A DNA stretch of 64,000 bases from Bacteroidales bacterium (lineage in GTDB: Bacteria > Bacteroidota > Bacteroidia > Bacteroidales > ML635J-15). The notes beneath the pieces are model-generated. The model saw only the letters and a list, made by a program, of their open reading frames with translations. It was not told where the DNA came from and made no database searches. The position numbers were made by a program, and so were the translations under genes. Below, in pieces: positions 43,212 to 64,000 of the stretch. The DNA is taken from assembly GCA_017651185.1 (NCBI GenBank), contig JAGCDJ010000022.1:26688-90687 (forward strand), written 5' to 3'. How positions within the stretch are numbered: position 1 is the stretch's first letter; each line of letters opens with the position of its first letter.

Positions 43212-43285
43212 GGGGTATTAGCTCAGTTGGCTAGAGTGCATGGCTGGCAGCCATGAGGTCATCGGTTCGACCCCGATATACTCCA
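43212..43285 (+). tRNA. tRNA-Ala (anticodon GGC), CCA encoded at 43286-43288
   Basis: Manual fold: acceptor GGGGTAT/ATACTCC with the diagnostic G3-U70 pair, anticodon arm CATGG-CTGGCAG-CCATG, T-arm ATCGG-TTCGACC-CCGAT. Confidence 0.9.
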
Positions 43286-43294
43286 CCAGAAGGA

Positions 43295-43317
43295 AGCGGC
43301 TGATTAGCCGCTTTTTT
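43295..43317 (+). terminator. rho-independent terminator after tRNA-Ala
   Basis: AGCGGCT/AGCCGCT stem with a GATT loop, followed by TTTTTT. Confidence 0.8.
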
Positions 43318-43428
43318 CGTATGATACCACAAGATTTAAGTCTCCTCTCGAGTTAAAACATATATACCTAACAACCAACATATTAATTGTTTATTAATAT
43401 TTTTATATGAAATTCGGACAATTTTTAG

Positions 43429-43436
43429 TACCTTTG
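43429..43436 (+). promoter_or_regulatory. Bacteroidota -7 promoter motif (TACCTTTG) at the head of the biosynthetic operon
   Basis: TAnnTTTG match 38 nt upstream of the ATG at 43474. I found no other obvious promoter-sized gap in the next 20 kb. Confidence 0.5.
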
Positions 43437-43473: not shown

Positions 43474-45012
43474 ATGGCAATATTTACTGACAGATTGACA
43501 CTTAATGAGGTTGAAAAAATTCTATTTTCAGCCGAAAATATCAATATATCCAAAGAATGGATAGACCGCGTTGAGGCCTGCTATCATTTTCTGGAAAAAT
43601 TTGCTGCAGAAAAGGTCATATACGGAATCAACACAGGCTTCGGTCCTATGGCACAATGGCGCGTTGACGACAAATATCTCTCGGATTTACAATACAATAT
43701 CATCCGTAGCCATGCCACTGGCGCAGGCGAACCATTGGACGACATTTACGTAAAGTCGGCAATGATTGCCCGTCTCGGCACTGTATTGCAATGCCGTTCG
43801 GGTGTTCACCCAGATGTTGCCAGACTACTCATTTCGTTCATAAACGAAGGCATATATCCATTCATTCCTGTACACGGAAGCGTAGGCGCAAGCGGAGACC
43901 TCGTACAACTGGCACACATAGCCCTTTGCCTCATCGGTGAAGGCGAAGTCCACTACAAAGGCGAATGGCGCAAATCAGCCGACGTGATGAAGCAACTCGG
44001 ACTTACCCCATTGAAGGTTCACATTCGCGAAGGTCTGTCAATCACCAACGGCACTTCCGTTATGACGGGAATTAGCGTTGTAAACCAGATACACGCCGAA
44101 AATCTTCTTGACTGGGCAACACTCGCCGCCGTATGGATGAACGAAATCGCTTCTTCGTTCGACGACTACATGGCACTAGAGGAAAACGAATGCCGCCGCC
44201 ACGAAGGGCAGCAAGTAATCGCTCGCCGTATGCGTGAAATATCGGAAGGTTCAAAATGCATGAAAAAACGTGCTCATGAACTATACGACTATGGTCACAA
44301 GGACGTAAAAGTGTTCGAACACAAAGTTCAAGCATACTATTCGCTTCGTTGCACACCGCAGATTTTAGGTCCAATATACGACACTCTGAAATATGCCCGC
44401 AATATAATCGAAGACGAACTCAACTCGGCTTGCGACAATCCAATAGTTGACCCCGAATCGCAATACGTTTACCACGGAGGCAACTTCCATGGCGATTACA
44501 TTTCGCTTGAGGAAGATAAAGTCAAGATAGCACTTGTTCGTCTTGCTATGACATCCGAACGACAGCTCAACTACCTGTTCCACGACAGAATAAACGGCAT
44601 TTTGCCGCCATTCCTGAACCTTGGAACTCTCGGACTGAACTACGGAATGCAGGCTTGCCAGTTCACAGCAACTTCAACAACAGCAGAATGCCAGACACTC
44701 GCAATGCCGAACTATGTGCACAGCATCCCGAACAACAACGACAACCAGGACATAGTAAGCATGGGAACCAACACTGCATTGATTTGCAAGCACGTAGTTG
44801 AAAACTGCTTCCAAATTATGGCAATCCAGTATATAGCTTTAGCTCAAGCAACCGACTGCCTAAAGATAGCAGACAAACTTTGTCCTACTTCACGCAAAGT
44901 TTATGAAGAAGTACGTAAAATCGTACCTCTGTTCATCGAGGACACTCCTTTCTACAAGGACATTGCAAACATAGAAAACTATTTGAAAACTAATAAATTG
45001 AATTTGAAATAA
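43474..45012 (+). CDS. aromatic amino acid ammonia-lyase (HAL/TAL/PAL family, MIO-dependent)
   Basis: 512 aa. The MIO-forming triad sits in GSVGASGDLVQLAHIAL, with YGINTGFGPMA and NNDNQDIVSMG blocks. Context suggests tyrosine ammonia-lyase as in flexirubin clusters, but the selectivity-switch position reads S-H (IIRSHATGAG). Confidence 0.85.
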   Translation: MAIFTDRLTLNEVEKILFSAENINISKEWIDRVEACYHFLEKFAAEKVIYGINTGFGPMAQWRVDDKYLSDLQYNIIRSHATGAGEPLDDIYVKSAMIARLGTVLQCRSGVHPDVARLLISFINEGIYPFIPVHGSVGASGDLVQLAHIALCLIGEGEVHYKGEWRKSADVMKQLGLTPLKVHIREGLSITNGTSVMTGISVVNQIHAENLLDWATLAAVWMNEIASSFDDYMALEENECRRHEGQQVIARRMREISEGSKCMKKRAHELYDYGHKDVKVFEHKVQAYYSLRCTPQILGPIYDTLKYARNIIEDELNSACDNPIVDPESQYVYHGGNFHGDYISLEEDKVKIALVRLAMTSERQLNYLFHDRINGILPPFLNLGTLGLNYGMQACQFTATSTTAECQTLAMPNYVHSIPNNNDNQDIVSMGTNTALICKHVVENCFQIMAIQYIALAQATDCLKIADKLCPTSRKVYEEVRKIVPLFIEDTPFYKDIANIENYLKTNKLNLK

Positions 45013-45740
45013 TGAAATACGCTCTCATCACCGGTGCTTCTCGTGGTTTGGGCAGGGCTGTCGCCTTGCGCCTCGCCAAAGACGGGTTTGCTGTAATAAT
45101 CAACTACCAGTCGAACAAGGAAGCTGCCGAAGAAACTTTGAAACTTGTCCAGGAAGCTGGCGGAAATGGAGAACTCCTCCCCTTCGATGTTGCCGATTCG
45201 AAAGCAATCGAAACAGCATTGGAATCGTGGCAATCCACCCATCCCGACGAATATATTTCCGTATTGGTAAACAACGCAGGCATAAGAAAAGACAACCTGA
45301 TGATATTCATGCAGGAAACCGAATGGAACAATGTCGTCGACACCACACTGAACGGATTTTTCTACATCACACGCCGACTGTTGAAAGACATGATAACCCA
45401 CAGAAACGGACGTATTATAAACATGTCGTCGCTATCGGGACTAAAGGGTTTGCCAGGACAGACAAACTATTCGGCAGCAAAAGCAGCACTCATTGGTGCA
45501 ACAAAGGCATTGGCACAGGAAGTTGCAGCTAGAAAAATAACCGTCAACGCAATTGCACCAGGTTTCATTTCAACCGACATGACAAAGGAACTAAACGAGG
45601 CAGAACTAAAAAAACTCATACCGATGGGACGTTTCGGAAAACCAGAGGAAGTCGCTAGTTTGACATCGTTCCTTGCATCTGACGAAGCTGCATACATCAC
45701 AGGACAGGTAATTTCAATAAACGGAGGCTTATACACATAA
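45012..45740 (+). CDS. 3-oxoacyl-ACP reductase (SDR, FabG-like)
   Basis: ALITGASRGLGRA cofactor motif and the YSAAKAA catalytic motif. The start overlaps the previous stop (TAATG). Confidence 0.88.
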   Translation: MKYALITGASRGLGRAVALRLAKDGFAVIINYQSNKEAAEETLKLVQEAGGNGELLPFDVADSKAIETALESWQSTHPDEYISVLVNNAGIRKDNLMIFMQETEWNNVVDTTLNGFFYITRRLLKDMITHRNGRIINMSSLSGLKGLPGQTNYSAAKAALIGATKALAQEVAARKITVNAIAPGFISTDMTKELNEAELKKLIPMGRFGKPEEVASLTSFLASDEAAYITGQVISINGGLYT

Positions 45741-45758: not shown

Positions 45759-46985
45759 ATGACAAGAAGAGTAGTCATCACAGGCATAGGCATCTGGTCA
45801 TGCATTGGCAAGAACAAAGAAGAAGTAACCGCTTCATTGCGCGAAGGCCGTTCGGGTATCGGCATCGACCCACAACGTACAGAATACGGCTATCGTTCGC
45901 CACTGACAGGAATCGTTGAAAAGCCACAACTTAAAGGCAAACTCGACCGAAAACTTAGAATGTACCTCGCCGAAGAAGGCGAATACGCATACGTAGCCGC
46001 ACTCGAAGCATTCCAGCAGGCAAATATTGACGATGAATACCTACAGAACAACGAAGTTGGCGTAATTTTCGGCAACGATTCCTCTGCAAAGGCTGTCATC
46101 GAATCGCACGAGATGGCAATTGAGAAAAAAGACACCACCTTGATTGGTTCGGCTGCAATATTCCAGTCGATGAACTCGACTGTGACTATGAACCTGTCAA
46201 CCATTTTCCACCTCAAAGGAATAAACATGACAGTGAGCGCAGCATGCGCAAGCGGATCTCACTCAATTGGGTTAGGCGCATTGTTGATTCGTAATGGACT
46301 TCAGGACATGGTACTTTGCGGCGGTGCACAGGAAACCAATTACCTTTCGATGGGCAGTTTCGATGGCATTAGCGCATTCTCAACTCGCATCGATGAACCT
46401 ACAAAGGCCTCCCGTCCGTTCGACCGCAATCGCGACGGACTTGTTCCGAGTGGTGGCGCAGCGGCACTGGTACTCGAAGACTACGACCATGCAGTAGCTC
46501 GTGGAGCTACAATATTAGCCGAAGTTTGCGGATACGGATTCTCGTCGAATGGAGAAAGCCATATTTCGCAACCAAGCGAAGAAGGTTGCATGCGTGCAAT
46601 GTTGCGTGCCATGAAGGAAGCTGACGTAAAAGCAGAAGACATCGACTATGTAAACGCTCACGCAACATCCACCCCACAAGGCGACATGTTCGAGGCTTTG
46701 GCTTTGAAACAATTGTTTGGAAAGACACAAACGCCAATCTCTTCAACAAAATCGATGACAGGACATGAATGCTGGATGGCTGGCGCAAGCGAAATCGTTT
46801 ACTGCATACTAATGATGCAGAACGGCTTTATCGCTCCGAATATAAACTTCGAAAATCCCGACGAATATTCCGACGGACTGAACATTGTGACCAAGGCTAC
46901 AGACAAGCGACTTAACACCATACTCTCCAATTCATTCGGATTTGGAGGCACAAATTCTGCATTATTAATCAAAAAAATAAAGTAA
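45759..46985 (+). CDS. beta-ketoacyl-ACP synthase (KAS I/II type, stand-alone)
   Basis: 408 aa. Active-site Cys in VSAACASGSHSI, with His motifs VNAHATSTPQGD and GHECWMAGA (a Cys-His-His triad). Confidence 0.88.
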   Translation: MTRRVVITGIGIWSCIGKNKEEVTASLREGRSGIGIDPQRTEYGYRSPLTGIVEKPQLKGKLDRKLRMYLAEEGEYAYVAALEAFQQANIDDEYLQNNEVGVIFGNDSSAKAVIESHEMAIEKKDTTLIGSAAIFQSMNSTVTMNLSTIFHLKGINMTVSAACASGSHSIGLGALLIRNGLQDMVLCGGAQETNYLSMGSFDGISAFSTRIDEPTKASRPFDRNRDGLVPSGGAAALVLEDYDHAVARGATILAEVCGYGFSSNGESHISQPSEEGCMRAMLRAMKEADVKAEDIDYVNAHATSTPQGDMFEALALKQLFGKTQTPISSTKSMTGHECWMAGASEIVYCILMMQNGFIAPNINFENPDEYSDGLNIVTKATDKRLNTILSNSFGFGGTNSALLIKKIK

Positions 46986-46987: not shown

Positions 46988-47551
46988 ATGAAACAGACAT
47001 TATTGGTATTAGTTATTATTCTTACAGGAATAGCAACTGCAACAGCAAAACCAGACGTAACGGTTATCAAGGGTTCTCTCGTAGAACTTAAAAAGTCTAA
47101 CGCTAAGATTTTTGTCCGCTGGGACTACACCAACAGCACAATCGAAGGCAAGGAAGTAAACGCTTATTTGAAGGAACGTGGCGATGACTGGGTTCGCGAC
47201 TACGATGCCGAAATTGCAAGGGCTGAAAGTAACTTCAGAGAACGCCTCGACGATGAATCGAAAGATGTTCAAACGACAACCGAAGAAAGTTCTGCCGAAT
47301 ATACCATTGTTATGAAAGTTAAAGACTTTAACTACGGTATAACCGGATTGGCAGTCGCTGTAGGTTTTGGTGCTGGAGATTCTCATCTTTATGGTACAAT
47401 GGAGATTTACAAGAAAGGACAGTCGGAACCAATAGCAATCCTCGATGTTGATGGAGTTCCAGGTGCTGGATTTGGCAACGAGATTCGTCGTGTAGAGGCA
47501 TACCGCGAATTGGCAGAAAACCTTGCCAAACTTATTAAGAAAGCAAAATAG
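46988..47551 (+). CDS. secreted protein of unknown function
   Basis: 187 aa. The signal peptide is MKQTLLVLVIILTGIATATA. No catalytic motif recognised. It is embedded in the biosynthetic operon. Confidence 0.6.
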   Translation: MKQTLLVLVIILTGIATATAKPDVTVIKGSLVELKKSNAKIFVRWDYTNSTIEGKEVNAYLKERGDDWVRDYDAEIARAESNFRERLDDESKDVQTTTEESSAEYTIVMKVKDFNYGITGLAVAVGFGAGDSHLYGTMEIYKKGQSEPIAILDVDGVPGAGFGNEIRRVEAYRELAENLAKLIKKAK

Positions 47552-47558: not shown

Positions 47559-48659
47559 ATGGACTTATTTCCAGAATTAGAAAAAAAATATACCCGCGAA
47601 CAACTTTCCGCCCGCGAAGCACAACGGCAGGCAGAATGGATTGCTTGGGGACCAGTGGTTTTCCAGGCATCAAGGTTAATGGTGAAATTCGGCATTCTCG
47701 ACCTACTTCGCGACAGCGACAATGGAATGACGCAGGAGGAAATTGTAAAAGCTACAGGACTTTCTCCATACGCAGTAAAGGTGCTTATGGAAGCATCGCT
47801 ATGCATAGGCACTGTGCTGATTGACAAGGATACCGACAGGTTCAGCATTTCGAAAACCGGGTGGTTCCTGCTGACCGACAAACTAGTAAGGGTAAATATG
47901 GATTTCAACCACGACGTAAACTACGAAGGTTGGTTCAAACTCGAAGAGTCGCTGCTCGAAGGTAAACCCGCAGGACTGAAGCATTTCGGTGACTGGCCGA
48001 CTGTTTACGAAGGTTTGTCGCAACTGCCAGAACAAGTGCAGAAAAGTTGGTTTGGTTTCGACCACTTCTATTCCGACAACTCGTTTGCTCAGGCCTTGGA
48101 AATTGTATTTTCCAACAAGCCGAAAACTCTGCTCGATGTTGGCGGCAATACAGGACGCTGGGCTTTGCAATGCGTCGGTTACGACAATGATGTAAATGTC
48201 ACCATTATGGATTTGCCTCAGCAACTGGAAATGATGCGCAAGTTTACGGCAGGTCAAAAAGGTGCAGAACGCATCGACGGATACGGCATAAATCTGCTCG
48301 ACAAAGCAGCCGCCTTCCCTACCGACAAGCACTACGATGCAATATGGATGAGCCAGTTCCTCGACTGCTTCAGCGAAAATGAAATACTAAGCATTTTGTC
48401 AAGAGCTGCCAAAATAATGGATGACAAAAGCCGTGTTTACATTATGGAAACATTCTGGGACAGACAGAAATACGAACCTGCAGCATTTTGTCTTACAATG
48501 ACAAGCTTGTACTTCACCGCAATAGCCAACGGCAACAGCAAGATGTATCATTCAGAGGATATGGCAAGACTTGTTCGTGAAGCAGGTATGGAAGTAGAAA
48601 AAATACATGACAATTTAGGTCATGGACATAGTATAATGATTTGTAAACGTAATAAATAA
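47559..48659 (+). CDS. SAM-dependent O-methyltransferase (family-2 type with N-terminal wHTH/dimerisation domain)
   Basis: ORF 47523..48659 (TTG), with ATG at 47559 (MDLFPELEKK) preferred. SAM motif I is LLDVGGNTGRWA, and the N-terminus is FGILDLLRDSDNGMTQEEIVKATG. Confidence 0.82.
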   Translation: MDLFPELEKKYTREQLSAREAQRQAEWIAWGPVVFQASRLMVKFGILDLLRDSDNGMTQEEIVKATGLSPYAVKVLMEASLCIGTVLIDKDTDRFSISKTGWFLLTDKLVRVNMDFNHDVNYEGWFKLEESLLEGKPAGLKHFGDWPTVYEGLSQLPEQVQKSWFGFDHFYSDNSFAQALEIVFSNKPKTLLDVGGNTGRWALQCVGYDNDVNVTIMDLPQQLEMMRKFTAGQKGAERIDGYGINLLDKAAAFPTDKHYDAIWMSQFLDCFSENEILSILSRAAKIMDDKSRVYIMETFWDRQKYEPAAFCLTMTSLYFTAIANGNSKMYHSEDMARLVREAGMEVEKIHDNLGHGHSIMICKRNK

Positions 48660-48664: not shown

Positions 48665-48907
48665 ATGGATAGAAAAGAAATTGAAGCAAAAGTAAAAGAA
48701 TTCTTGATTGAAGACCTTGAAATTGAAGAAGATAAGATAAAACCAGAAGCACGTTTAAAGGAAGATATAGGTATCGACAGTCTCGATTTCGTCGACATCG
48801 TAGTCATAGTCGAAAGAAAATTCGGCTTTAAGATTAAGACGGAAGAGATGGTTAACATAAAGACTTTCAGTCAGTTCTGCGATTATATAGAGCAAAAGAC
48901 GGCCTAA
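48665..48907 (+). CDS. acyl carrier protein
   Basis: 80 aa. The phosphopantetheine site is GIDSLDFVDIV. Confidence 0.85.
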   Translation: MDRKEIEAKVKEFLIEDLEIEEDKIKPEARLKEDIGIDSLDFVDIVVIVERKFGFKIKTEEMVNIKTFSQFCDYIEQKTA

Positions 48908-48910: not shown

Positions 48911-49807
48911 ATGGCTGAAGAGCTGCAACATAACGAATGGTCTGGAAAAACCGATGGGCAACCGTGGATGCAACGTTCTCTCATCGGTATGTTCCGCGTA
49001 TTGCCAATATGGGTAATATACGGATTTATGGCTGTTTTTATTGTTCCGTTCTACATGATATTCAGCAGAAAAGGTTATAAAGCCACATACTCATTCTTCC
49101 GCAAACGCTTCCAATACGGGCGATGGAAATCATTTTGCAAGGTTTACGCAAACCATTTCCGCTTCGGACAGGTAATATTGGATAGATTTGGCGTATATGC
49201 TGGCAAGAAATACAAGTTCGACATCGAAGGACAGGATTTTTTGGATGAACTTGAAAACCATCCCGAAGGTTTTGTTCTGCTAAGCAGCCATGTTGGCAAT
49301 TACGAAATTGCTGGGTACTCATTAAAAACCAAAGCAAAAAGGTTCAATGCACTGGTATTTGCAGGAGAAACCGCTACCGTTATGGAAAATCGCAGGAGAA
49401 TACTATCGCAAAACAACATGAACATGATTCCCGTGATGGCCGACATGTCACATCTGTTCGCACTGAACACAGCAATCGACAACGGAGAAATAGTCAGTAT
49501 GCCTGCCGACCGTATTTTTGGTTCACAAAAAGCAGCCGAATGTACTTTCTTTGGAGAAACAGCAAGATTTCCATTGGGTGCCTTTGCTTTGTCGGCACAG
49601 AAAAACGTTCCTGTTCTAGCAATTTTTATAATGAAAGAAAGCACAAGGAAATATCACGCATACGTCCGGAAAATCATGTGCGACAGATCGGCAAAAATTC
49701 GCGAACAAATGAACCAAATGGCACAGAATTTTGCAGAAAACTTAGAGGAAATCGTCAGGAAATACCCGACGCAATGGTTCAACTATTTTGATTTTTGGAA
49801 ACAATGA
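48911..49807 (+). CDS. LpxL/HtrB-type (lysophospholipid/lipid A-like) acyltransferase
   Basis: 298 aa. An N-terminal TM segment and LLSSHVGNYEIAG (an Hx4E variant of the Hx4D/E motif). It occupies the position of ApeD-like acyltransferases in aryl-polyene clusters. Confidence 0.72.
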   Translation: MAEELQHNEWSGKTDGQPWMQRSLIGMFRVLPIWVIYGFMAVFIVPFYMIFSRKGYKATYSFFRKRFQYGRWKSFCKVYANHFRFGQVILDRFGVYAGKKYKFDIEGQDFLDELENHPEGFVLLSSHVGNYEIAGYSLKTKAKRFNALVFAGETATVMENRRRILSQNNMNMIPVMADMSHLFALNTAIDNGEIVSMPADRIFGSQKAAECTFFGETARFPLGAFALSAQKNVPVLAIFIMKESTRKYHAYVRKIMCDRSAKIREQMNQMAQNFAENLEEIVRKYPTQWFNYFDFWKQ

Positions 49808-50241
49808 AAGCAATCGACGAATTGACAATAGAAGAACTCATTCCACAGAGACCGCCATTCGTAATGATTGACAGGCTGGTGTCGAGCGACGATGTGTATT
49901 CGGTAACGGAACTCACTATACGTGAAGACAATCTATTTGTCGAAGATGGACGTTTTTCCGCATCGGGACTGATTGAAAACATTGCCCAAACCTGCGCCGC
50001 AAGAATAGGATACATAAACCTAAGTCATGGTCAAACTGTCAAAATAGGCGTTATTGGGTCAATAAGCAACCTGAACATTGAACGCACGCCAAAAGTTGGA
50101 GAAAAACTGACAACCACCATAAAACTATTGGAAGAAGTTTTCCAAATGACTTTGGTCGAAGCGACAACAACTTGCAACAACGAAGAAATCGTGCACGCCA
50201 ACATGAAAATTGCCTTGACTGACATTGACTCAAAAAACTGA
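49804..50241 (+). CDS. hot-dog fold 3-hydroxyacyl-ACP dehydratase (FabZ/ApeI-like)
   Basis: ORF 49795..50241 (TTG). The ATG at 49804 forms an ATGA overlap with the upstream stop. LIPQRPPFVMIDRLV matches the FabZ-like N-terminal motif. Confidence 0.75.
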   Translation: MKAIDELTIEELIPQRPPFVMIDRLVSSDDVYSVTELTIREDNLFVEDGRFSASGLIENIAQTCAARIGYINLSHGQTVKIGVIGSISNLNIERTPKVGEKLTTTIKLLEEVFQMTLVEATTTCNNEEIVHANMKIALTDIDSKN

Positions 50242-50246: not shown

Positions 50247-50681
50247 ATGGAAAAGGAAAAGATATTATCGGTAACCAAACCTTTTGAAATCCGCTTCAGC
50301 GAAGTCGATTCAATGGGTGTCGTATGGCACGGGCACTACTCGGTTTACTTCGAGGATGCAAGGGAGGAATTTGGCAAGAAATACGATTTGGGGTACCTTA
50401 TGATGTACGGCAAAGGTTTCTTCGAACCCATAGTTGACCTTTCTATAAAATACAAGAAACCATTGATTTACGGAATGAAACCTGAAATTACAATTACCTA
50501 CCGCCCTACCGATGCTGCAAAAATCGTATTCGATTACGAAATTCGCAACAGGGAAACTGGTGAAATACATGTGACAGGCCGTACAATCCAGGTTTTCATG
50601 AACAAAGACAACTACCAACTCGTACTGACGAATCCTGATTTCTACGAGGAATGGAAAAAAAGATGGGAGGTCGCAATATGA
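50247..50681 (+). CDS. 4HBT/YbgC-type acyl-CoA/ACP thioesterase
   Basis: 144 aa. IRFSEVDSMGVVWHGHYSVYFEDAREEF is the 4HBT hot-dog thioesterase signature. Confidence 0.82.
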   Translation: MEKEKILSVTKPFEIRFSEVDSMGVVWHGHYSVYFEDAREEFGKKYDLGYLMMYGKGFFEPIVDLSIKYKKPLIYGMKPEITITYRPTDAAKIVFDYEIRNRETGEIHVTGRTIQVFMNKDNYQLVLTNPDFYEEWKKRWEVAI

Positions 50682-52360: not shown

Positions 52361-52618
52361 ATGGACGATTTGATTTACAAACTGAAACAGGAAATTATCG
52401 AAGCATTGAACCTCGAAGACATGACTCCTGAAGACATTGATGAAAACGCATCTCTGTTTGGCGAAGGTCTTGGACTTGACTCAATTGATGCACTCGAACT
52501 CATAGTGCTGATGGAAAAGAACTACGGCATAAAACTGCAGGATCCGAACCAAGGCAAGGAAATTTTCAAGTCAGTAAAGGTGATGGCAGAGTTCATCCAA
52601 CAGAACAGGACAAAATAA
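52361..52618 (+). CDS. acyl carrier protein
   Basis: 85 aa. The phosphopantetheine site is LGLDSIDALELIV. Confidence 0.85.
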   Translation: MDDLIYKLKQEIIEALNLEDMTPEDIDENASLFGEGLGLDSIDALELIVLMEKNYGIKLQDPNQGKEIFKSVKVMAEFIQQNRTK

Positions 52619-55800: not shown

Positions 55801-56168
55801 TATACAACCTATATACCACCATCAATGTCGAAGACACCGAAAACGGATTTGTTGCTGAAATAGAAACAAATCCGTCTCACATAATATACAAGGCACATTT
55901 TCCTGAAAATCCAATTACTCCGGGAGTGTGCATCATAAAGACTGCAGGAGAACTTCTCGAAAACAAAATAAACCGTAAATTGTGGCTAAAAACCGTTAAG
56001 AATGTAAAATTTCTGTCGGTAATAATTCCAGACGAAGGCAAAAGAATAAAATATGCCTTCTCAAACTTCAAGGAAGAGGAAAATGGCTGCAAGGTGCAGG
56101 TTCAAGTGAACGACGAAACAACAATTTACGCCAAAATATCACTATTATTCAGCTATGAAAGAATCTGA
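55791..56168 (+). CDS. hot-dog fold dehydratase (FabA/FabZ / ApeP-like)
   Basis: 125 aa (alternative ATG at 55797 forming an ATGA overlap). YKAHFPENPITPGVCIIKTAGELL is the FabZ-type active-site region. Confidence 0.72.
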   Translation: MQMIYNLYTTINVEDTENGFVAEIETNPSHIIYKAHFPENPITPGVCIIKTAGELLENKINRKLWLKTVKNVKFLSVIIPDEGKRIKYAFSNFKEEENGCKVQVQVNDETTIYAKISLLFSYERI

Positions 56169-56904
56169 CGCATTGAAACTGTGCGTAATAATGCCGACCT
56201 ACAACAACGGGGGAACTCTGCGAGATGTCGCGGAACGCGTGTTGGCGTTTACAAATGATTTAATCATTGTAAACGACGGATGCACAGACAATACACCAGA
56301 AATACTAGCATCAATGGGCGAAAAAATCACTGTCGTTGACTACGGCAAGAACCGTGGCAAAGGATATGCACTGAAAAAAGGTTTCGAAAAGGCCAAAGAA
56401 CTCGGTTTCGACTATGCCATTACCATCGACTCCGACGGTCAGCATTTTCCCGAAGATATTCCCCTGTTTATTGAAGCAATAAAGCGAAACAAAGGAGCAT
56501 TGGTTGTCGGAAGCAGAAATCTGAAACAAGAAAACATGCCCGGAGGAAATACTTTTGCAAATAAGTTCTCAAACTTCTGGTTCAGAGTTCAAACTGGCAT
56601 TAATTTACCCGACACGCAGACTGGATACAGATTGTATCCGCTCAAAAACATGCCAAGTCTTTGTATGCTTACATCGCGATACGAAGCAGAATTAGAGTTG
56701 CTTGTTTTCTCTGCTTGGCGCAACATACCGCTGATTCCCATCAAGATAAATGTATTCTATCCCAAAGCCGAGGAACGCATTTCGCATTTCAGACCTTTCT
56801 GGGACTTTTTCAGAATCAGCGTACTGAACACAATACTATGCTTCGTGGCGATTTTCTACGGATGGCCGTCACGACTAATAAGGAAATGGAGGTCGCATGA
56901 ATAG
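56155..56904 (+). CDS. family-2 glycosyltransferase with C-terminal membrane segment
   Basis: 249 aa. VIMPTYNNGGTL...IVNDGCTDNT...ITIDSDGQH are GT2 motifs, with a C-terminal hydrophobic helix LNTILCFVAIFYGW. Confidence 0.85.
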   Translation: MKESDALKLCVIMPTYNNGGTLRDVAERVLAFTNDLIIVNDGCTDNTPEILASMGEKITVVDYGKNRGKGYALKKGFEKAKELGFDYAITIDSDGQHFPEDIPLFIEAIKRNKGALVVGSRNLKQENMPGGNTFANKFSNFWFRVQTGINLPDTQTGYRLYPLKNMPSLCMLTSRYEAELELLVFSAWRNIPLIPIKINVFYPKAEERISHFRPFWDFFRISVLNTILCFVAIFYGWPSRLIRKWRSHE

Positions 56905-59900
56905 ATTTTTCCTTTCAATATACGACTACCTGTCAAAGCGCAAAGTCCTTTCAATAATCATATTATTGACAATTACCGCATTGTGTGTACTTTCCGCTTT
57001 GCAACTCGACTACAAGGAAAACATTGCCGACTTTCTGCCTACCGACCCTGAAAAGGAAAAATACACTTCGGTTTACAACGACTTGAGCAATCAAGGACAA
57101 ATAACCGTAATCTTCTCATCTGACGACACAGACGAACTGATGTCGGCAGTTGACGACTTTGAAGCAAACTGGGAGGAGGCTGATACCGCACAACTGGTAA
57201 GCGACCTAAGGTGCAAAATTGACGACGGACAAGTATTCGACGCCATCGATTTCATACGCGAGAACCAGCCATTGTTTCTTACCGAAAACGACTTCCAGAG
57301 AATGGATTCGCTACTTGCCGACACCAGCCATGTAGCCACCTGCCTGCAAAACATAAAGCGAATGTTGTCGTTTCCGACTGCAAGTTTCATTGTCGAAGGA
57401 ATAAAAGCAGACCCGCTAAACCTATATTCTCCAACCTTACAGCGACTGACTGCACTGAATGCCACCGAAGGTTTTGTAATAAACGACGAATACCTGATGA
57501 ACGAAAACGGAGACAAGGCTTTTGCATTCTTCTCCTCTCCTTTCGCAGGTAGCGACACAAAAAACAATGCCATACTGGTCGAACTGATAAACAATGTCAT
57601 TGACACAACAACAAAAAGCCATCAGGGAGTAAAAATTTCGGCTGTTGGCGCTCCAACCATAGCCGTCACCAATGCCCAGCAGATAAAAAGAGACAGTTTC
57701 CTATCCATCGCACTCGCTTTAGTGCTGATTTTTGGCATACTGATGTTCACAATGGCAAGGAAACGAAACCTTATTTGGCTTGGTATATCAATTCTTTTCG
57801 GCTGGATTTTCGCGTTAGCAATCATTGCCTTATTCAAGACAAGCATATCGATAATTGTCATTGGCATCGGCTCGGTAATTTTGGGCATTGCGGTAAACTA
57901 TCCGCTCCACTATCTCGACCACATCAAGCAGCAACCCGACAAGCGCGAAGCACTAAAAGATGTAATCCAACCGCTAGTCATCGGAAACATCACAACCGTT
58001 GCTGCGTTCGCCTGCCTAATCTTCGTAAAGGCAGAAGCAATGCACGACCTTGGTCTTTTCGGTGCACTAATGCTTATCGGCACGATACTTTTCGTAATGG
58101 TCTTCCTGCCGTTGCTGGCTGTCGTTCCGAAAAAGAAACACAAACTTTTCGTCGATAGCGGAAAAGAACCTAACGAAAAATGGCGGAAGGCAAAGATTTT
58201 CGCCTTCTGGCCTTTGGTAATCGTAACCATCATCCTCGGCTACTACAGCCAAGAAACGACCTTCGATTCCGACCTGCACAACATCAACTACATGACAGAG
58301 CAACAAAAGGAAGACATTGCCCTGCTCAACGAATCAATGCAAAAGGAAGGCAAGACAGACCTTATTTATGTAGTATCGGAAAGCAGCGACTTGCAACAAG
58401 CACTGCAACAAAACGAAAAAATAATTGACAACCTGAAAAAATCTATTCCGCAGAATGTAAATGTTAGCATTTCTGGTCCCGATGGACTATTGCCGTCAAC
58501 CGAGAAGCAAAAGGAATCGATTGAAAGATGGAATGACTTCTGGCAACAGCATGCCGAAATAGTCAACGAAATAAACACAGAAGCCATAGCAAACGGTTTT
58601 ACTGCCAGTGCATTCGCACCATTTACAGACAATCTCGAAAAGCAATACGACACGAAGTCGCAAAGTGAAATGCAACCGCTAATGGAACTATGCAAAACCT
58701 ATACCTTGCAGCACGATTCATTGACTCGCGTTGTAAACTTTGTGCGCGTGCCTGCCGAATTTTCCGACTCTTTGAAACAACAGCTTCGCCAAACATTGCC
58801 AGACAATGGTTTTGCATTCAGCATGTCGGATATTGGAAGCAATCTGGTTACAGTTCTGTCCGAGGATTTTGACTACATTCTGTATGTATGTAGCATTGTC
58901 GTATTCTTCTTCCTATGCATCTCGTTCGGACGACTCGAATTGTCAATACTTGCCTTCCTGCCACTTACCATCGGCTGGGCTTGGATATTGGGTTTGATGT
59001 ACTTCTTCGGAATAAAATTCAACATCGTAAACATAATTCTGGCGACATTCATATTCGGACAAGGCGACGACTACACCATTTTCATAACCGAAGGACTGCT
59101 GTACGAATACTCCTACGGCAAAAAGATGCTTAAAAACTACCGCAACAGCGTTATTCTTTCCGGAATATTGATGTTTATCGGCATTGGAACGCTTATTTTT
59201 GCCAAACACCCTGCAATGAAGTCGCTGGCCGAAGTCGCAATAGTAGGCATGATGACTGTTGTATTGATGGCATGCTACCTACCGCCTGTCATTTTCAACT
59301 GGTTGACAAAGAAGAAAGGTCAGCTTCGCGATGTACCGGTAACAATCAAGCGACTTTTGTACACTTTTGTTTCACTCCTTGTATTTTTCGTATCAGCATT
59401 TGTTTTGGTAACACCATTTACTATATTATACAAGCTTATCGGTCGCGACAGCGAACGTAAACGTCTATGGTACCATAAACTTATAGTTGTTTTCAACAGA
59501 TTTGCAATATTACGTCTTCCTGGTGTAAAGTATTCGCTAGATAATCCTTACGGTGAAGATTTTGAAAAACCGGCAGTCATAATTGCCAACCACCAGTCAC
59601 ACCTCGACTTGTCGTGCATAATGATGCAGTCGCATAAGATAGTTATACTTACCAACGACTGGGTATGGAAAGATCCAATATACGGATTGATTATCAGATA
59701 TGCTGAATTTTATCCGGTATCGGATGGTTACGACAAGAATATAGAACGTCTGAAAAACCTTGTCTCAAGAGGCTACTCGGTTGTTATTTTCCCCGAAGGC
59801 ACACGTTCGGTAACCGGAGAAATCATGCGATTCCACAAGGGAGCATTCCAATTGGCACAATCCCTCAACATCGACATTCTGCCTATATTCATACATGGAG

Positions 59901-60421
59901 CCAACCATGCCATGCCCAAAAATGACATTATCCTGCGCGAAGGCGCACTTCATATTGAAATCGGACAAAGGTATTCGGCAGAAAAAGTACAAGCAGTTAC
60001 CGCAAGAGAGTTGACCTCTTACTTCCACAAATACTATCTAGAACATTTCGAAGAAATACGCAACAAGTGTGAAGACACAGAATACGTATCGAAATATGTA
60101 CGATACAAATATATCTACAAGGGCAACGATGTGGAACGCTCGAGCCGTGCAAACATTAAGAAGATAAAGGCACATTCGGAAGAAATCAACACCTTGCAAG
60201 GCAATAGCATAGCAATAAGGAACAGCGGATACGGAGAACTTGCATGGACAATTGCACTCGTTCACAGGCAAACGCAAGTTTATGCATTGGAAACCGATGT
60301 GGACAAGTTCCTGATTGCCTCGCATTGCACCTGCATTCCGGAGAACCTACATTTCGTTAACGACGAAAACGAATTGCCAACCTGTGAACTAACAATTGAT
60401 AGCCAAACGTTTCTGAAATGA
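56897..60421 (+). CDS. fusion protein: MMPL/RND-type exporter + PlsC-type acyltransferase + truncated class-I methyltransferase-like tail
   Basis: 1174 aa. Residues ~1-805 carry two hydrophobic bundles with large loops (MMPL-like, GQGDDYTIFI). Residues ~815-1045 carry NHQSHLD (Hx4D) and FPEGTRS acyltransferase motifs. Residues ~1100-1174 carry IAIRNSGYGELA...VYALETD, which resembles SAM motif I plus the acidic post-I residue, but the protein ends ~60 aa later. Confidence 0.8.
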   Translation: MNRFFLSIYDYLSKRKVLSIIILLTITALCVLSALQLDYKENIADFLPTDPEKEKYTSVYNDLSNQGQITVIFSSDDTDELMSAVDDFEANWEEADTAQLVSDLRCKIDDGQVFDAIDFIRENQPLFLTENDFQRMDSLLADTSHVATCLQNIKRMLSFPTASFIVEGIKADPLNLYSPTLQRLTALNATEGFVINDEYLMNENGDKAFAFFSSPFAGSDTKNNAILVELINNVIDTTTKSHQGVKISAVGAPTIAVTNAQQIKRDSFLSIALALVLIFGILMFTMARKRNLIWLGISILFGWIFALAIIALFKTSISIIVIGIGSVILGIAVNYPLHYLDHIKQQPDKREALKDVIQPLVIGNITTVAAFACLIFVKAEAMHDLGLFGALMLIGTILFVMVFLPLLAVVPKKKHKLFVDSGKEPNEKWRKAKIFAFWPLVIVTIILGYYSQETTFDSDLHNINYMTEQQKEDIALLNESMQKEGKTDLIYVVSESSDLQQALQQNEKIIDNLKKSIPQNVNVSISGPDGLLPSTEKQKESIERWNDFWQQHAEIVNEINTEAIANGFTASAFAPFTDNLEKQYDTKSQSEMQPLMELCKTYTLQHDSLTRVVNFVRVPAEFSDSLKQQLRQTLPDNGFAFSMSDIGSNLVTVLSEDFDYILYVCSIVVFFFLCISFGRLELSILAFLPLTIGWAWILGLMYFFGIKFNIVNIILATFIFGQGDDYTIFITEGLLYEYSYGKKMLKNYRNSVILSGILMFIGIGTLIFAKHPAMKSLAEVAIVGMMTVVLMACYLPPVIFNWLTKKKGQLRDVPVTIKRLLYTFVSLLVFFVSAFVLVTPFTILYKLIGRDSERKRLWYHKLIVVFNRFAILRLPGVKYSLDNPYGEDFEKPAVIIANHQSHLDLSCIMMQSHKIVILTNDWVWKDPIYGLIIRYAEFYPVSDGYDKNIERLKNLVSRGYSVVIFPEGTRSVTGEIMRFHKGAFQLAQSLNIDILPIFIHGANHAMPKNDIILREGALHIEIGQRYSAEKVQAVTARELTSYFHKYYLEHFEEIRNKCEDTEYVSKYVRYKYIYKGNDVERSSRANIKKIKAHSEEINTLQGNSIAIRNSGYGELAWTIALVHRQTQVYALETDVDKFLIASHCTCIPENLHFVNDENELPTCELTIDSQTFLK

Positions 60422-63408
60422 AAAAATGCATTGTCATAGGAAGTGGACTTGGTGGACTATCCACAGGTGTAATTCTAGCGAAAAACGGCTACGATGTAAC
60501 CATATTCGAGCAAGCCAAGCAGATTGGCGGTTGCTTGCAGTGTTTCTGGCGCACTGGCGTTAAGTTTGAGACTGGTATGCATTTCGTTGGCAGTCTCGAC
60601 GACGGAGAGGTGCTTTCCAACTATTTCAACTTCCTTGGAATCAAGGACAAGGTTGAAGTTTCGCGGATGGATACGCACTCGTACAATACCATTTCGCTCG
60701 ATGGTGAGCGCTTTTCCATTGCAAACGGTCACGAGCAGATGATTGAAAGTCTGGCACAACGCTTTCCAAACGAAAAGGATAATCTTCGTCGTTTCTGGCA
60801 ACTTGTGGATACGGTTGCTCAGGAGTCGCCATACTACGACCTAAGCCGTATCGACAGGAATCCGCATCTCGACTTGCGGTTGTTTACAACAAGCATCAAC
60901 GAGGTAATCGATGAGGTGATAACTGACCCTACTTTACGCAATGTGCTTGTGGGCGACATGTCGCTTTATGCTGCGCAACGCGACCGCACACCGTTTTCTA
61001 CATACGCCTTTGTGTCAAACTTCTACAACCGAAGCGCATTTAGGATTGTGGGCGGAAGCGACAACATAGCAAAGGCACTTGCCGAAGTGATAAAGTCGAA
61101 CGGAGGCAAGATTTATACAGGATGTCGCGTCGTAAGGGCGCATAGCAATAATGGTTCGATAACCAGTGTGGAACTGGAAAACGGAGAATTGGTAGAAGGC
61201 GACATATTTATTTCCGATGTGCATCCGATGCAGTTGAGCGGTATGTTTACAGGAAAGGAATTGCGTCCGTCGTTCTATTCGCGTATAGAGTCGATAAAGA
61301 ATACCCCGTCGGTGTTTTCACTTTTCCTGAAGTTCAAGTCGGGAGTGCCCTATATGAATACCAATTTCTACGGCTATTCGTGCAAGTCGCCGTGGGATAT
61401 GGAAAACTATGACGATACAACTTGGCCGCGTGGCTATTTGTATATGCACCATTGCCACGAGAAAGAGCAGAAGTATGCTCGCAGTGGCGTCATCTTGGTA
61501 TATATGCTTGCCGACGAACTTGCCGAATGGTCGCAGACCAAGGTTGGAAACAGAGGCGAATCGTACGAGGTGTTTAAGCGTGCCAAGACAGAAAAACTGC
61601 TTGATGCCGTCGAAAGGGATTTTCCCGAGATAAGGTCGCAAATAGAAGAATATTACACGGCAACACCGCTTACTTACCGCGACTACACCTTGTCGCCGGG
61701 CGGTTCGATGTACGGTATGGCAAAGGACTTGACTTTGGGCTTGGCAGGGCGCGTGTCGTACAAGACTAAGTTGCCGAATTTCTATTTGGTGGGACAGAAC
61801 ATTAATGCACACGGAATACTTGGCGTACTCGTCGGAACTTTGAACGTTTGTTCGGCTCTGCTTGGCGAAGATGTAGTTAAGAAACAGATGTTGGAGGCAA
61901 ATAATTCGGTTATTTCAGCAAAGCAAAAGTCAGTGCTGATTATCGGTGGCGGTCTTGGCGGTCTTGTTACCGGTGCCTTGCTTGCCAAGGAGAACTACAA
62001 GGTGACAGTTCTGGAGAAGAATGCCATAATAGGTGGCGGTTTGCAGACAATCAGGCGCAAAGGAGTGGATTTTGCAACTGGAATGCATATTTTCGGCGGT
62101 TTCAACAAGGATGGCAACCTTTACAAACTATTTGACTACCTTGGCATTGCAGACAAACTGAACCTTATGCCTACCGACGAAAAAGCCTGCGACATTGTTA
62201 CAATTGCCGACGACAATGCTACATATTATCTTCCCAAAGGCAAGGAAAACCTTGTGAATTACCTTTCAGGAATCTTCCCCGACGAAGCCGAAAACATTAG
62301 GCAGTACATCGACAAACTGTTTGAACTTTCGCAGGAGGAAGACCTTTTCTATATTCGCGAAAGGTCGATGGAACCGAATTTTACATCTTTGAGCGAAGAT
62401 TTCAAAAATCCATATAACCAACTAATTGACAAATACATACACAATCCAAAGTTAAAAAGAGTGCTTTGTTACCTGAAACCGCTTTTCGGTGGCGAGGAAG
62501 ATACTACTCCGGCATTCTTCAATGCTCTGCTAAGTGTACTGCACATTGGAGGTACATTCCAGTTTGTTGGTAGCGGTCTGCAGATGGTCGATATGCTGAA
62601 AAAAATTATAAAGGAGGCTGGTGGTGAAGTAGTTTCAAGCGAGGAAGTTACAAAAATTGAGGTAGAAGACCACGCGGTTACAAGGGTTATCACAAAGAAT
62701 GGCAATTCTTACATAGCCGACAGTTATATTTCCGATGTCCACCCCGATGTGCTGATGAAAATCATCAGTGGCGACGCATTCCCTGCAGCTTTCCGTAAAC
62801 GATTGAAACTGATTCCCGAATCGACTTCAAGCTTCAAGGTTTACATTAAGTTCAAGAAAAATGCCTTCCCATTCCTAAACCATGCTAACTATTATTACAA
62901 CAGTAGCATAGAATATCCGAATGGCATAATGTATGTTACCCCGCCAGTCGAGAACCAAGGCGAATTTGCCGAGACTATGGCAATAATCAGTCTTATGGAC
63001 TTCGACGAGGTCAAGAGGTGGGAGGATACCCAGACTGGTCATCGTGGCGAGGAATACGAACAGTGGAAAAAGGCGACGACAGAAAAGATTTTCGACGTGA
63101 TGGAGATAATTTATCCGCATTTCCGTGACTGCGTCGATTTCTCGTTTGCATCGTCACCGCTTACAATACGCGATTTTCTCGGCAACAAGGAAGGCTCGAT
63201 ATATGGATTCCAGAAGGATAGCCGCAATCTGATGCTTTCGCAGATGGCGGTTGCAACCAAGGTAAAGAATTTGTTCCTGACGGGACAGAACGTGAACATT
63301 CACGGATTCTGCGGAGTGTCGCTTACTGCAATCGAGACTGCCGAGGCCCTTGTCGGACACAATGTGATAGTAAAAAAAATCAACGAACATTGCAATAATA
63401 ACAAATAA
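60418..63408 (+). CDS. tandem-duplicated CrtI/phytoene-desaturase-like FAD oxidoreductase (two complete modules in one ORF)
   Basis: 996 aa. The first dinucleotide motif is KCIVIGSGLGGLSTGVILAKNGYDVTIFE (aa 3-31). The second is SVLIIGGGLGGLVTGALLAKENYKVTVLE (aa ~505-533). Both halves end with a related motif (FYLVGQNINAHGILGV / LFLTGQNVNIHGFCGV). Confidence 0.85.
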   Translation: MKKCIVIGSGLGGLSTGVILAKNGYDVTIFEQAKQIGGCLQCFWRTGVKFETGMHFVGSLDDGEVLSNYFNFLGIKDKVEVSRMDTHSYNTISLDGERFSIANGHEQMIESLAQRFPNEKDNLRRFWQLVDTVAQESPYYDLSRIDRNPHLDLRLFTTSINEVIDEVITDPTLRNVLVGDMSLYAAQRDRTPFSTYAFVSNFYNRSAFRIVGGSDNIAKALAEVIKSNGGKIYTGCRVVRAHSNNGSITSVELENGELVEGDIFISDVHPMQLSGMFTGKELRPSFYSRIESIKNTPSVFSLFLKFKSGVPYMNTNFYGYSCKSPWDMENYDDTTWPRGYLYMHHCHEKEQKYARSGVILVYMLADELAEWSQTKVGNRGESYEVFKRAKTEKLLDAVERDFPEIRSQIEEYYTATPLTYRDYTLSPGGSMYGMAKDLTLGLAGRVSYKTKLPNFYLVGQNINAHGILGVLVGTLNVCSALLGEDVVKKQMLEANNSVISAKQKSVLIIGGGLGGLVTGALLAKENYKVTVLEKNAIIGGGLQTIRRKGVDFATGMHIFGGFNKDGNLYKLFDYLGIADKLNLMPTDEKACDIVTIADDNATYYLPKGKENLVNYLSGIFPDEAENIRQYIDKLFELSQEEDLFYIRERSMEPNFTSLSEDFKNPYNQLIDKYIHNPKLKRVLCYLKPLFGGEEDTTPAFFNALLSVLHIGGTFQFVGSGLQMVDMLKKIIKEAGGEVVSSEEVTKIEVEDHAVTRVITKNGNSYIADSYISDVHPDVLMKIISGDAFPAAFRKRLKLIPESTSSFKVYIKFKKNAFPFLNHANYYYNSSIEYPNGIMYVTPPVENQGEFAETMAIISLMDFDEVKRWEDTQTGHRGEEYEQWKKATTEKIFDVMEIIYPHFRDCVDFSFASSPLTIRDFLGNKEGSIYGFQKDSRNLMLSQMAVATKVKNLFLTGQNVNIHGFCGVSLTAIETAEALVGHNVIVKKINEHCNNNK

Positions 63409-63445
63409 CATATACTTTTGTAATTTAGAAGAAAACGAATCATTT

Positions 63446-64000
63446 ATGGATAAAGTAAAACTGAAACTGATTTACCCGAAATGGAACAAACTGCCCGGAC
63501 AGACAACCTTCAACCTGCCGCCTCACGGACCGGTGGCATTTGCCGCAACTTTGCCCGAATACGTTGACATTTCGTTTACCGACGAAAACGTTGAGGCAAT
63601 TGACTTCGACGAGGAATGCGACCTTGTGGCACTATCGATGATGCTTACAACACAAGTAAAGCGCGGATGGGCGATTGCCGACGAATATCACAAGCGCGGC
63701 AAAAAGGTCATCGCTGGCGGTATTTCCACTATGCTTCACGCAGAGGAAATGGTAAACCATGTTGACAGCGTATTCCTTGGCGAATCGGAAGGTCGTTCCG
63801 AGCAGGTTATTATCGACTGGAAAAACGGCTGCCTGAAAAAGATATACAACTATATGGGCAACCAGCCACCAATCGAATCGGTAGGTCCTTGCCGCCGCGA
63901 CCTTTACAAGCGCGAACTGTATAACCACAAGGGCGTGCAGATGGTTGACCTGTTCCACGCTTCGCGCGGATGCCGTTTCAGTTGCTATCCATGTGCTGTG
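63446..64000 (+). CDS. B12-binding-domain radical SAM protein (N-terminal 185 aa; continues past the right edge)
   Basis: Not in the ORF track because it is open at 64000. The ATG at 63446 reads MDKVKLKLIYPKWNKLPG...DLVALSMMLTTQVKRGWAIADEYHKRGKKVIAGG (a B12-binding-like Rossmann region) and reaches ASRGCRFSCYPC (Cx3Cx2C). Confidence 0.75.
   Translation, partial: MDKVKLKLIYPKWNKLPGQTTFNLPPHGPVAFAATLPEYVDISFTDENVEAIDFDEECDLVALSMMLTTQVKRGWAIADEYHKRGKKVIAGGISTMLHAEEMVNHVDSVFLGESEGRSEQVIIDWKNGCLKKIYNYMGNQPPIESVGPCRRDLYKRELYNHKGVQMVDLFHASRGCRFSCYPCAV

Follow-up and report, generated by a model that had tools for sequence, protein, structure and literature searches.

We analysed a window of 64,000 nucleotides from a Bacteroidales bacterium (GenBank assembly GCA_017651185.1, contig JAGCDJ010000022.1, positions 26,688 to 90,687 of the forward strand), and in particular a flexirubin-like gene cluster, which begins behind a tRNA-Ala gene at position 43474 and continues beyond the end of the window. 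We determined the identities and the order of the genes, their orthology to the Flx proteins, the limits of the cluster and its distribution. Proteins were identified by their Pfam and NCBIfam profile scores relative to the cutoffs of the models, and catalytic motifs were checked separately. From 43474 to 64000 the + strand carries a run of 20 complete open reading frames (ORFs), and a 21st, which begins at 63446, is cut by the window edge. The features of the region are the following.

43212 to 43288, + strand: tRNA-Ala(GGC), found by ARAGORN and with Rfam RF00005 (61.9 bits); a neighbour of the cluster, not a member
43289 to 43318: terminator hairpin of tRNA-Ala, a 13-bp hairpin and a U-run (-19.4 kcal/mol, z = -5.3)
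43429 to 43436, + strand: Bacteroidetes-type -7 promoter motif TAccTTTG, ending 37 nt before the ATG of FlxA; a consensus match only
43474 to 45012, + strand: FlxA, tyrosine ammonia-lyase (TAL) with a methylidene-imidazolone (MIO) group (NF053541 FlxA_rubin_TAL, 839 bits, cutoff 700; PF00221)
45012 to 45740, + strand: FlxB, FabG-type ketoreductase of the short-chain dehydrogenase/reductase (SDR) family (NF053542 FlxB_rubin_SDR, 414 bits, cutoff 340)
45759 to 46985, + strand: FabB-like ketosynthase (KS) in the FlxC position (Pfam KS N- and C-domains; Cys163/His301/His triad)
46988 to 47551, + strand: secreted protein of 187 amino acids (aa), a variable accessory with a signal-peptide-like N-terminus and no Pfam or NCBIfam match
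47559 to 48659, + strand: S-adenosylmethionine-dependent methyltransferase of the FlxJ family (NF053543, 625 bits, cutoff 560; gene-caller start at 47559)
48665 to 48907, + strand: acyl carrier protein (ACP) 1, FlxD position (PF00550; DSL motif)
48911 to 49807, + strand: LpxL-type acyltransferase, FlxE position (PF03279, 68.7 bits)
49804 to 50241, + strand: ApeP-like hot-dog dehydratase, FlxF position (weak FabZ matches; precomputed PF22817 on the identical gene)
50247 to 50681, + strand: 4HBT thioesterase, FlxH position (PF13279, PF03061)
50678 to 51796, + strand: ketosynthase with Cys-His-His, FlxI position (Pfam KS N- and C-domains)
51793 to 52347, + strand: 184-aa partner protein, FlxL position (its place matches flxL; no family match)
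52361 to 52618, + strand: acyl carrier protein 2, FlxM position (PF00550; NF006617, 85 bits, cutoff 70)
52619 to 53818, + strand: ketosynthase with Cys159/His292/His, FlxN position (Pfam)
53815 to 54843, + strand: chain-length-factor-like (CLF) KS partner, FlxO position (PF13723 Ketoacyl-synt_2; no Cys/His motifs)
54846 to 55199, + strand: 117-aa membrane protein with four transmembrane segments, EamA/ArnE-ArnF-like (PF00892; weak ArnF/ArnE matches; four hydrophobic segments)
55201 to 55800, + strand: LolA2 periplasmic carrier (NF053544 LolA2_flexi, 153 bits, cutoff 125)
55797 to 56168, + strand: ApeI-like hot-dog dehydratase, FlxS position (PF07977, 26 bits; weak PF22818; precomputed ApeI-like match)
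56155 to 56904, + strand: family 2 glycosyltransferase (GT2) of the polyprenyl-phosphate-sugar synthase type, FlxT position (PF00535)
56897 to 60421, + strand: MMPL/RND-type exporter fused to a PlsC-type acyltransferase, FlxU position (PF03176, PF01553)
60418 to 63408, + strand: fused double FlxV flavoenzyme, CrtI/RetSat-like (Pfam, NCBIfam)
63413 to 63420, + strand: second intergenic TAnnTTTG motif (TActTTTG), 25 nt before the start of the radical SAM gene; a consensus match only
63446 to 64000, + strand: 5' part of a radical SAM gene of the putative B12-domain type (435 aa in full, ending at window-equivalent position 64753 on contig L002)

The ORF run, the overlaps and the domain list of the original prediction were all reproduced by Pfam and NCBIfam searches, motif checks and gene-caller starts; one ORF, that of the 117-aa membrane protein (54846 to 55199), was absent from its list. 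With gene-caller starts from identical public contigs the intergenic distances in the cluster are between -14 and +37 bp. The 4-bp ATGA overlaps at 49804, 50678, 51793, 53815 and 60418 were confirmed, a further one was found at 55797, and the FlxA and FlxB genes overlap by TAATG at 45012. The tight spacing and the overlaps indicate co-transcription. An AT-rich spacer of 185 bp, which contains the TAccTTTG motif, separates tRNA-Ala from FlxA. This motif had been described as the only clear TAnnTTTG of the region, yet the match at 63413 is also intergenic; it lies in a 37-bp gap and may be an internal promoter of the 3' module, a candidate picked by its sequence. It must be noted that the + strand of the region contains nine TAnnTTTG matches where 5 +/- 2 are expected by chance. 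A scan for sigma-70 promoters and terminators, which is uninformative for Bacteroidota, gave counts near the shuffled expectation. No + strand terminator stands out within the cluster, the counts being equal to those in shuffled sequence, and at the Rfam gathering threshold the tRNA alone was found, with no riboswitch or other RNA element in the cluster.

The catalytic motifs are in agreement with the family assignments. FlxA has the MIO-forming ASG motif at residue 139, and both ACPs carry the DSL/DSI serine. The Cys-His-His triad is kept in the three ketosynthases (45759, 50678 and 52619) and is missing from the proteins encoded at 51793 and 53815. The former of these, the 184-aa protein in the FlxL position, aligns to the N-terminal part of ketosynthases only and is without catalytic residues; flxL of Chitinophaga pinensis is annotated as a 'condensing enzyme' (PMC3992019 Table S4). 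Both the PlsC- and the LpxL-type acyltransferases retain HX4D/E motifs, that of the FlxU fusion being HQSHLD at residue 899. The ApeI-like score of the FlxS-position protein in our own scan was 20.9, under the Pfam cutoff of 28.5, and the GT2 showed sub-cutoff likeness to PpgS, ArnC and dolichyl-phosphate hexose transferases. The 117-aa EamA/ArnE-ArnF-like gene, which is kept in relatives, encodes a putative lipid-linked sugar flippase. Three proteins of the cluster (187 aa, 184 aa and 120 aa, the last encoded beyond the window) had no match in Pfam or NCBIfam. The 187-aa protein has matches over at least half of its length in four of 80 related loci, with more than 70% identity in two only.

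The window ends within the radical SAM gene, at its CxxxCxxC motif. The sequence of the double CrtI-like protein recurs exactly on metagenome contigs in ENA, and one of these, L002, overlaps with the window by 13,583 bases without a single difference. Genes past 64000 were read from L002, and the sequence searched comprised the window plus 9.4 kb downstream (73.4 kb). On L002 the 435-aa radical SAM protein is followed by a 120-aa protein, a secreted alpha/beta-hydrolase (esterase), a cargo protein of the type IX secretion system (T9SS), a small antitoxin-like gene, a PIN toxin, a 431-aa AMP-binding enzyme, a 367-aa PlsC-like acyltransferase and CutC. The AMP-binding enzyme (window-equivalent 68818 to 70113) is the PaaK-type ligase FlxY, which scored 706 bits with NF053551 (cutoff 520). 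The ligase that the original prediction had reported missing is thus present about 5 kb past the edge, and its apparent absence was an effect of where the window ends. The end of the cluster, which had been left to a search downstream of 64000, falls after FlxY and the acyltransferase, as set on L002 and in 26 related genomes, and the downstream neighbour CutC is conserved with relatives. The cluster therefore extends from 43474 to window-equivalent position ~71225, about 7.2 kb past the edge of the window. Its length of ~27.8 kb, together with the promoter-like motif in front of the radical SAM gene, does not agree with the single operon of 20 kb described before.

In 20 of the 26 related genomes the esterase, FlxY and acyltransferase genes follow each other directly. 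On L002 there is a 2.9-kb insertion between esterase and FlxY (15547 to 18344, window-equivalent ~65964 to 68761), which consists of the 648-aa T9SS cargo protein and the toxin-antitoxin pair (67-aa protein and PIN toxin). It is absent from these 20 genomes and is common only with the lineage of contig L006.

It is instructive to compare the cluster with the flxA-flxY cluster of C. pinensis (MIBiG BGC0000839), a comparison which we based on gene order and annotations (PMC3992019 Table S4) and on the NCBIfam equivalog models. Five of the NCBI flexirubin equivalog models were passed, those of FlxA, FlxB, FlxJ and LolA2 in the window and that of FlxY downstream. The C. pinensis order starts with TAL, SDR, KS, ACP, a lipid A-type acyltransferase, a dehydratase-like protein, a hypothetical protein, a thioesterase and a KS; it continues with a methyltransferase, a halogenase, the 'condensing enzyme', an ACP, a KS, a KS-like protein, a deacetylase and LolA; and it ends with a hypothetical protein, a dehydratase-like protein, a GT2, an exporter/acyltransferase, the retinol-reductase-like FlxV, the peptidase-C45-like FlxW, a holo-ACP synthase and FlxY (PMC3992019). 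The shared genes have almost the same order in the two clusters. Both contain two ACPs and five condensing-enzyme-like genes whose order (FlxC, I, L, N, O) is identical, thus the KS pair that the original prediction regarded as extra is canonical (PMC3992019 Table S4). The differences are that FlxJ is placed earlier in our locus and FlxV is duplicated and fused. FlxW (peptidase C45-type), the FlxK halogenase, the FlxP deacetylase, FlxG, FlxR/LolB2 (not found in the window) and FlxX are not at this locus, whereas the radical SAM protein, the 120-aa protein, the secreted esterase, the 367-aa PlsC-like acyltransferase, the ArnE/F-like protein and the 187-aa secreted protein are extra relative to C. 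pinensis. Collinearity with a characterised flexirubin cluster, which had been named as an outcome that would leave nothing new, largely holds for the core genes; the two loci are not near-identical, and their accessory genes differ.

The Flavobacterium johnsoniae UW101 cluster (Fjoh_1074-1110, BGC0000838) shares the core of TAL, PaaK-type ligase, FlxV-type reductase, exporter-acyltransferase, GT2 and LolA, but it has darA/darB, an ABC transporter, beta-barrel proteins and a halogenase inside, which are not found in our cluster. The radical SAM gene is listed in neither the C. pinensis nor the F. johnsoniae cluster. The ape clusters of Escherichia coli CFT073 and Xenorhabdus doucetiae, which make aryl-polyene (APE) lipids (APELs), have in common with our locus the KS/CLF, two ACPs, ApeI/ApeP-like dehydratases, ketoreductase and thioesterase, as well as a methyltransferase, an LPLAT-type acyltransferase, a glycosyltransferase, an MMPL exporter and a LolA-like carrier. 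For the ape clusters neither a FlxV nor a radical SAM homologue is reported. Ape systems load the starter via an ApeH-type adenylating enzyme, and the route differs here, where tyrosine would be converted by the TAL and then taken over by a PaaK-type ligase. The starter elongated by the ape systems is a 4-hydroxyphenyl unit, each deletion from apeB to apeR alters the aryl-polyene lipid profile of Xenorhabdus, and the product of this organism is APE-GalNAc-phosphate-diacylglycerol (bioRxiv 10.1101/2020.12.19.423268), with N-acetylgalactosamine (GalNAc) as the sugar. These deletions support the view that the GT2, acyltransferase, MMPL and LolA genes serve to build a lipid anchor.

Taken together, the locus is very probably an aryl-polyene biosynthetic gene cluster (BGC) of the flexirubin family, similar to type II polyketide synthase (PKS) and fatty acid synthase (FAS) systems, of an uncultured rumen Bacteroidales bacterium. 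The earlier assignment to the flexirubin branch of type II PKS-like aryl-polyene clusters, opening with a tyrosine ammonia-lyase, is borne out by the five equivalog models and the C. pinensis gene order, and we agree that the exact product cannot be read from known models.

A working scheme can be proposed, of which the chemical steps, the anchor and the localisation are inferred. The activities of FlxA and FlxY of C. pinensis were shown biochemically (PMC3992019). By analogy with these enzyme assays FlxA would convert tyrosine to the 4-coumarate starter, and FlxY would convert 4-coumarate to 4-coumaroyl-CoA. The starter would then be transferred onto an ACP and, judged from the protein families, extended by the FlxN-FlxO and FlxI-FlxL pairs and the FabB-like FlxC, each extension being followed by reduction by FlxB and dehydration by the ApeP/ApeI-like hot-dog enzymes, to give a conjugated aryl-polyene acyl chain. 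FlxJ would methylate the product. The thioesterase and the LpxL- and PlsC-type acyltransferases may transfer the chain to a lipid or glycolipid anchor, whose head group may come from the GT2 and the ArnE/F-like protein via a lipid-linked sugar. The position of an ArnC/PpgS-like GT2 beside an ArnE/F-like protein suggests that such a sugar is synthesized and flipped, and the proposed sugar-lipid anchor is consistent with the Xenorhabdus product. Delivery of the lipid to the outer membrane would be the task of the MMPL fusion and LolA2, and the fused FlxV together with the module of radical SAM protein, 120-aa protein and esterase would tailor the lipid.

Several observations weigh against the assignment to the flexirubin family, or at least against its simplest form. 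FlxW was not found between FlxV and FlxY or within 10 kb, either on the contig or in the Parabacteroides and Prevotellaceae relatives. DarA and DarB were found neither in the 73.4 kb, nor upstream of FlxA in the clustered related loci, nor in a human-gut relative. None of the Bacteroidales clusters of the same type has a known product. The KS proteins score higher to FabB and FabF structures than to ApeO: in comparisons which are pairwise only, FlxN scored ~211 bits with FabF, its best match in the PDB, and 166 bits with ApeO (6kxd), and FlxC scored 328 bits with E. coli FabB, also the best PDB match, and 177 bits with ApeO. The polyene assignment is thus based on gene context and synteny instead of a KS tree. 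Furthermore, on contig L033, which comes from another sample and has 99.75% nucleotide identity, two indels break the thioesterase and FlxI ORFs, thus some strains may carry inactive copies of the cluster, or the indels may be an assembly error. In the same part of L033 (7010 to 9109, window 50247 to 52347) the indels also leave the FlxL-position ORF with 183 instead of 184 aa.

The radical SAM protein is the most conserved protein of the cluster, being 90-99% identical where the neighbouring genes are 34-86% identical. Its CxxxCxxC motif (CRFSCYPC, residues 176-183) is invariant in an alignment of 74 sequences. The Pfam scores are under the cutoffs (B12-binding 27.0 vs 32.1, Radical_SAM 27.8 vs 29.5), all NCBIfam matches are far under theirs, and sequence comparison with the PDB gave marginal matches only. 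The AlphaFold model has a predicted local distance difference test (pLDDT) of 93.9 and a predicted template modelling (pTM) score of 0.91. In a fold search its best match was the diol dehydratase AprD4 (TM 0.77/0.74), followed by the cobalamin-dependent methylases MgmA, TsrM, CysS and TokK. The model supports a predicted architecture of a Rossmann domain and then a radical SAM barrel. AprD4 is not known to use or bind cobalamin, and for the radical SAM protein of our cluster cobalamin is only a putative cofactor.

Homologues of this protein number more than 6,000; the best 120 are all at least 80% identical, and their sources include Bacteroidaceae, Prevotellaceae and Parabacteroides. When 1.84 billion cluster representatives were searched exhaustively, only two full-length sequences were more than 50% identical, and the remainder were at most 44% identical. 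The nearest relatives outside the Bacteroidales (65% and 53% identity) are on contigs L117 (1 to 11275) and L119 (1 to 17580), each in a lipid cluster which, besides KS pairs, ACPs, ApeI/ApeP-like dehydratases and LolA, has another two or three radical SAM genes. L119 also encodes an aromatic ammonia-lyase, a CrtI-like enzyme and a ligase similar to 4-coumarate-CoA ligase (4CL). L117 encodes a true member of TIGR04072 ('lipid biosynthesis B12/radical SAM', 'ladderane-type'; 380 bits, cutoff 360), whereas the radical SAM protein of our cluster scores ~40 bits on this model. These contexts tie the enzyme to aryl-polyene-like lipid pathways of anaerobes. In the literature we found no publication that connects a radical SAM enzyme with Bacteroidales clusters for flexirubins or aryl polyenes.

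It is conceivable, although we hold it only as a tentative idea, that gut and rumen Bacteroidales use the cluster not for flexirubin but for another aryl-polyene (glyco)lipid, fit for life without oxygen, which is remodelled by the radical SAM enzyme and the paired FlxV. Such remodelling would be, for example, C-methylation, dehydration, reduction or cyclisation of the polyene or of its lipid partner. By analogy, the chemistry would be related to that of the multi-radical-SAM 'ladderane-type' lipid clusters in which the closest relatives of the enzyme are found.

That the cluster makes a canonical flexirubin, i.e. an aryl-polyene acid esterified to a dialkylresorcinol, with darA/darB elsewhere in the genome as in C. 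pinensis, we regard as unlikely. The five Flx equivalog models are in its favour, and C. pinensis itself has its dar genes (Cpin_6843-6852) at a great distance from flx (Cpin_1853-1877), thus their absence at the locus is not decisive. FlxW, whose proposed role in C. pinensis is the joining of the polyene to the resorcinol (PMC3992019), is, however, absent here and in all related loci examined, and no KS III/DarA-like ORF was found in any of the sequences searched for DarA and DarB. Bacteroidales are generally described as being without flexirubin-type pigments, which we also counted against the canonical product. Because FlxW is absent and the Dar genes were not found, an APE-lipid appears, from the gene content, to be a more likely product than a dialkylresorcinol ester.

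The two halves of the FlxV fusion are 30% identical to each other. The N-terminal half is 53% identical to the first of two separate FlxV proteins in a Prevotellaceae metagenome-assembled genome (MAG) and 42% to the single FlxV of Parabacteroides; the C-terminal half is 46% identical to the second Prevotellaceae FlxV and 69% and 61% to the single FlxV of two rumen relatives. The N-terminal half groups with FlxV_a and the C-terminal half with FlxV_b. On these sequence identities the double protein is a simple gene fusion, by which this clade joined two old FlxV paralogues that are found elsewhere either as single genes or next to each other. The FlxU/FlxV junction is also the place of a sharp switch in sliding nucleotide identity (~60420 to 60500). 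Upstream of the breakpoint the window is 94-99% identical to L011, a MAG from red deer, and 47-67% to RUG12182 (L006); downstream of it the values are 71-91% to L011 and 89-99% to L006, and this pattern reaches window-equivalent position ~68000 (L002 10000 to 17600). The switch indicates that a 3' module, comprising the FlxV fusion, the radical SAM gene, the 120-aa gene, the esterase and the T9SS/PIN insertion, was imported by recombination from another lineage.

The original prediction saw in the place of the cluster, immediately 3' of a tRNA, the classic geometry of a genomic island. Integration at the tRNA-Ala 3' end would fit with FlxA beginning 185 bp after the tRNA, with the variation of the genomic neighbours of the cluster between related species and with the exchange of its 3' part by recombination. 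However, there is no integrase or other mobility gene among the neighbouring genes or in the window and the 9.4 kb downstream; the genes upstream encode a trigger factor, an M16 peptidase, a peptidyl-prolyl isomerase (PPIase) and T9SS cargo proteins, and CutC downstream is conserved with relatives. The direct repeat of the tRNA-Ala 3' end which was to be looked for downstream does not exist in the 73.4 kb; both strands were searched for the terminal 14-45 nt of the tRNA, direct or inverted and with 0-6 mismatches allowed, and gave no match. No compositional break marks the boundary (GC 0.41-0.47 inside vs 0.37-0.45 outside). Among the 74 related loci with enough upstream sequence, tRNA-Ala is located upstream of FlxA in two, both with at least 97% FlxA identity, i.e. 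from the same species; in other lineages a diacylglycerol-kinase-like gene and phosphoglycerate kinase, or Rnf genes, are found upstream of FlxA. The hairpin and U-run directly after the tRNA indicate that tRNA-Ala is a separate transcription unit. The adjacency of tRNA-Ala to the cluster is incidental, and the island interpretation, already largely refuted, is very improbable. If any aspect of the cluster is mobile, it is the recombination of the 3' module and not integration at the tRNA.

A low-GC stretch at 29697 to 34483 (0.376-0.389), with a Schlafen/AlbA_2-HATPase protein and a 752-aa ORF without Pfam match, sits just upstream of tRNA-Leu(TAG) at 34401 and looks more island-like than the flexirubin locus.

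It is hardly credible that the genes form a housekeeping fatty-acid or lipid A-type acylation system and not a polyene pigment pathway: although the best solved-structure matches are E. coli FabB for FlxC and FabF for FlxN, and LpxL-, PlsC- and FabZ-like proteins are present, the KS proteins are under the NCBI FabB/FabF equivalog cutoffs (405 vs 630 for FlxC with FabB, and 294 vs 494), the cluster is framed by the TAL and the PaaK-type FlxY, neither of which takes part in fatty-acid synthesis, and synteny with flexirubin clusters that have genetic and biochemical support extends over the whole set.

A scan for the fused FlxV in one genome per GTDB species identified 26 loci, all in uncultured Bacteroidales MAGs, from the gut of cattle, buffalo, deer, goat, yak and horse. 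A scan of JGI metagenomes with FlxA gave 445 relatives, which include human-gut contigs with ~75% identity. A Parabacteroides genome and a Prevotellaceae MAG carry FlxU, one or two FlxV genes, the radical SAM gene, the 120-aa gene, an optional esterase, FlxY and the acyltransferase, and this same order indicates that the architecture is order-wide and not peculiar to our window. Clusters of this kind are also known from previous surveys: among the BGC classes of rumen genomes aryl polyenes rank second in frequency (2,800 in 8,160 genomes; PMC8241843), the flexirubin gene-cluster cloud covers five of six Bacteroidetes classes (PMC9248904), an aryl-polyene BGC of Bacteroides xylanisolvens is syntenic with the C. 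pinensis flexirubin cluster (PMC12940132), and flexirubin-like clusters are persistent in the human gut (PMC12940132). In the literature we found no description of a product for the Bacteroidales-type cluster.

Some relatives show other arrangements. In one rumen lineage (L005, L006, L007 and L026) the cluster is rearranged, with FlxA (77% identity) located downstream of it on the opposite strand. In the human-gut relatives with FlxA of ~75% identity (L107, 9816 to 11279) the FlxF-type dehydratase and the FlxI-type KS seem to form one ORF of 487 aa, and FlxA is not followed by FlxB. In the window itself a second MMPL-family transporter (1080 aa) is found beside a divergent AraC-type regulator at 16904 to 21295, seemingly unrelated to the cluster.

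These results show that the main identification of the original prediction was correct and that the locus is much less unusual than it proposed. The cluster is largely an ordinary instance of a widespread family that can be annotated automatically, the exception being its conserved radical SAM module. The nature of the product, the chemistry of the radical SAM enzyme and FlxV, and the question of the resorcinol are matters of the whole Bacteroidales variant and not of this single locus. The Bacteroidales version has a defined, conserved architecture, without the genes proposed for resorcinol attachment at the locus and with a radical SAM protein under very strong conservation, which offers a defined starting point for chemical work on cultured carriers, for example Bacteroides or Parabacteroides.

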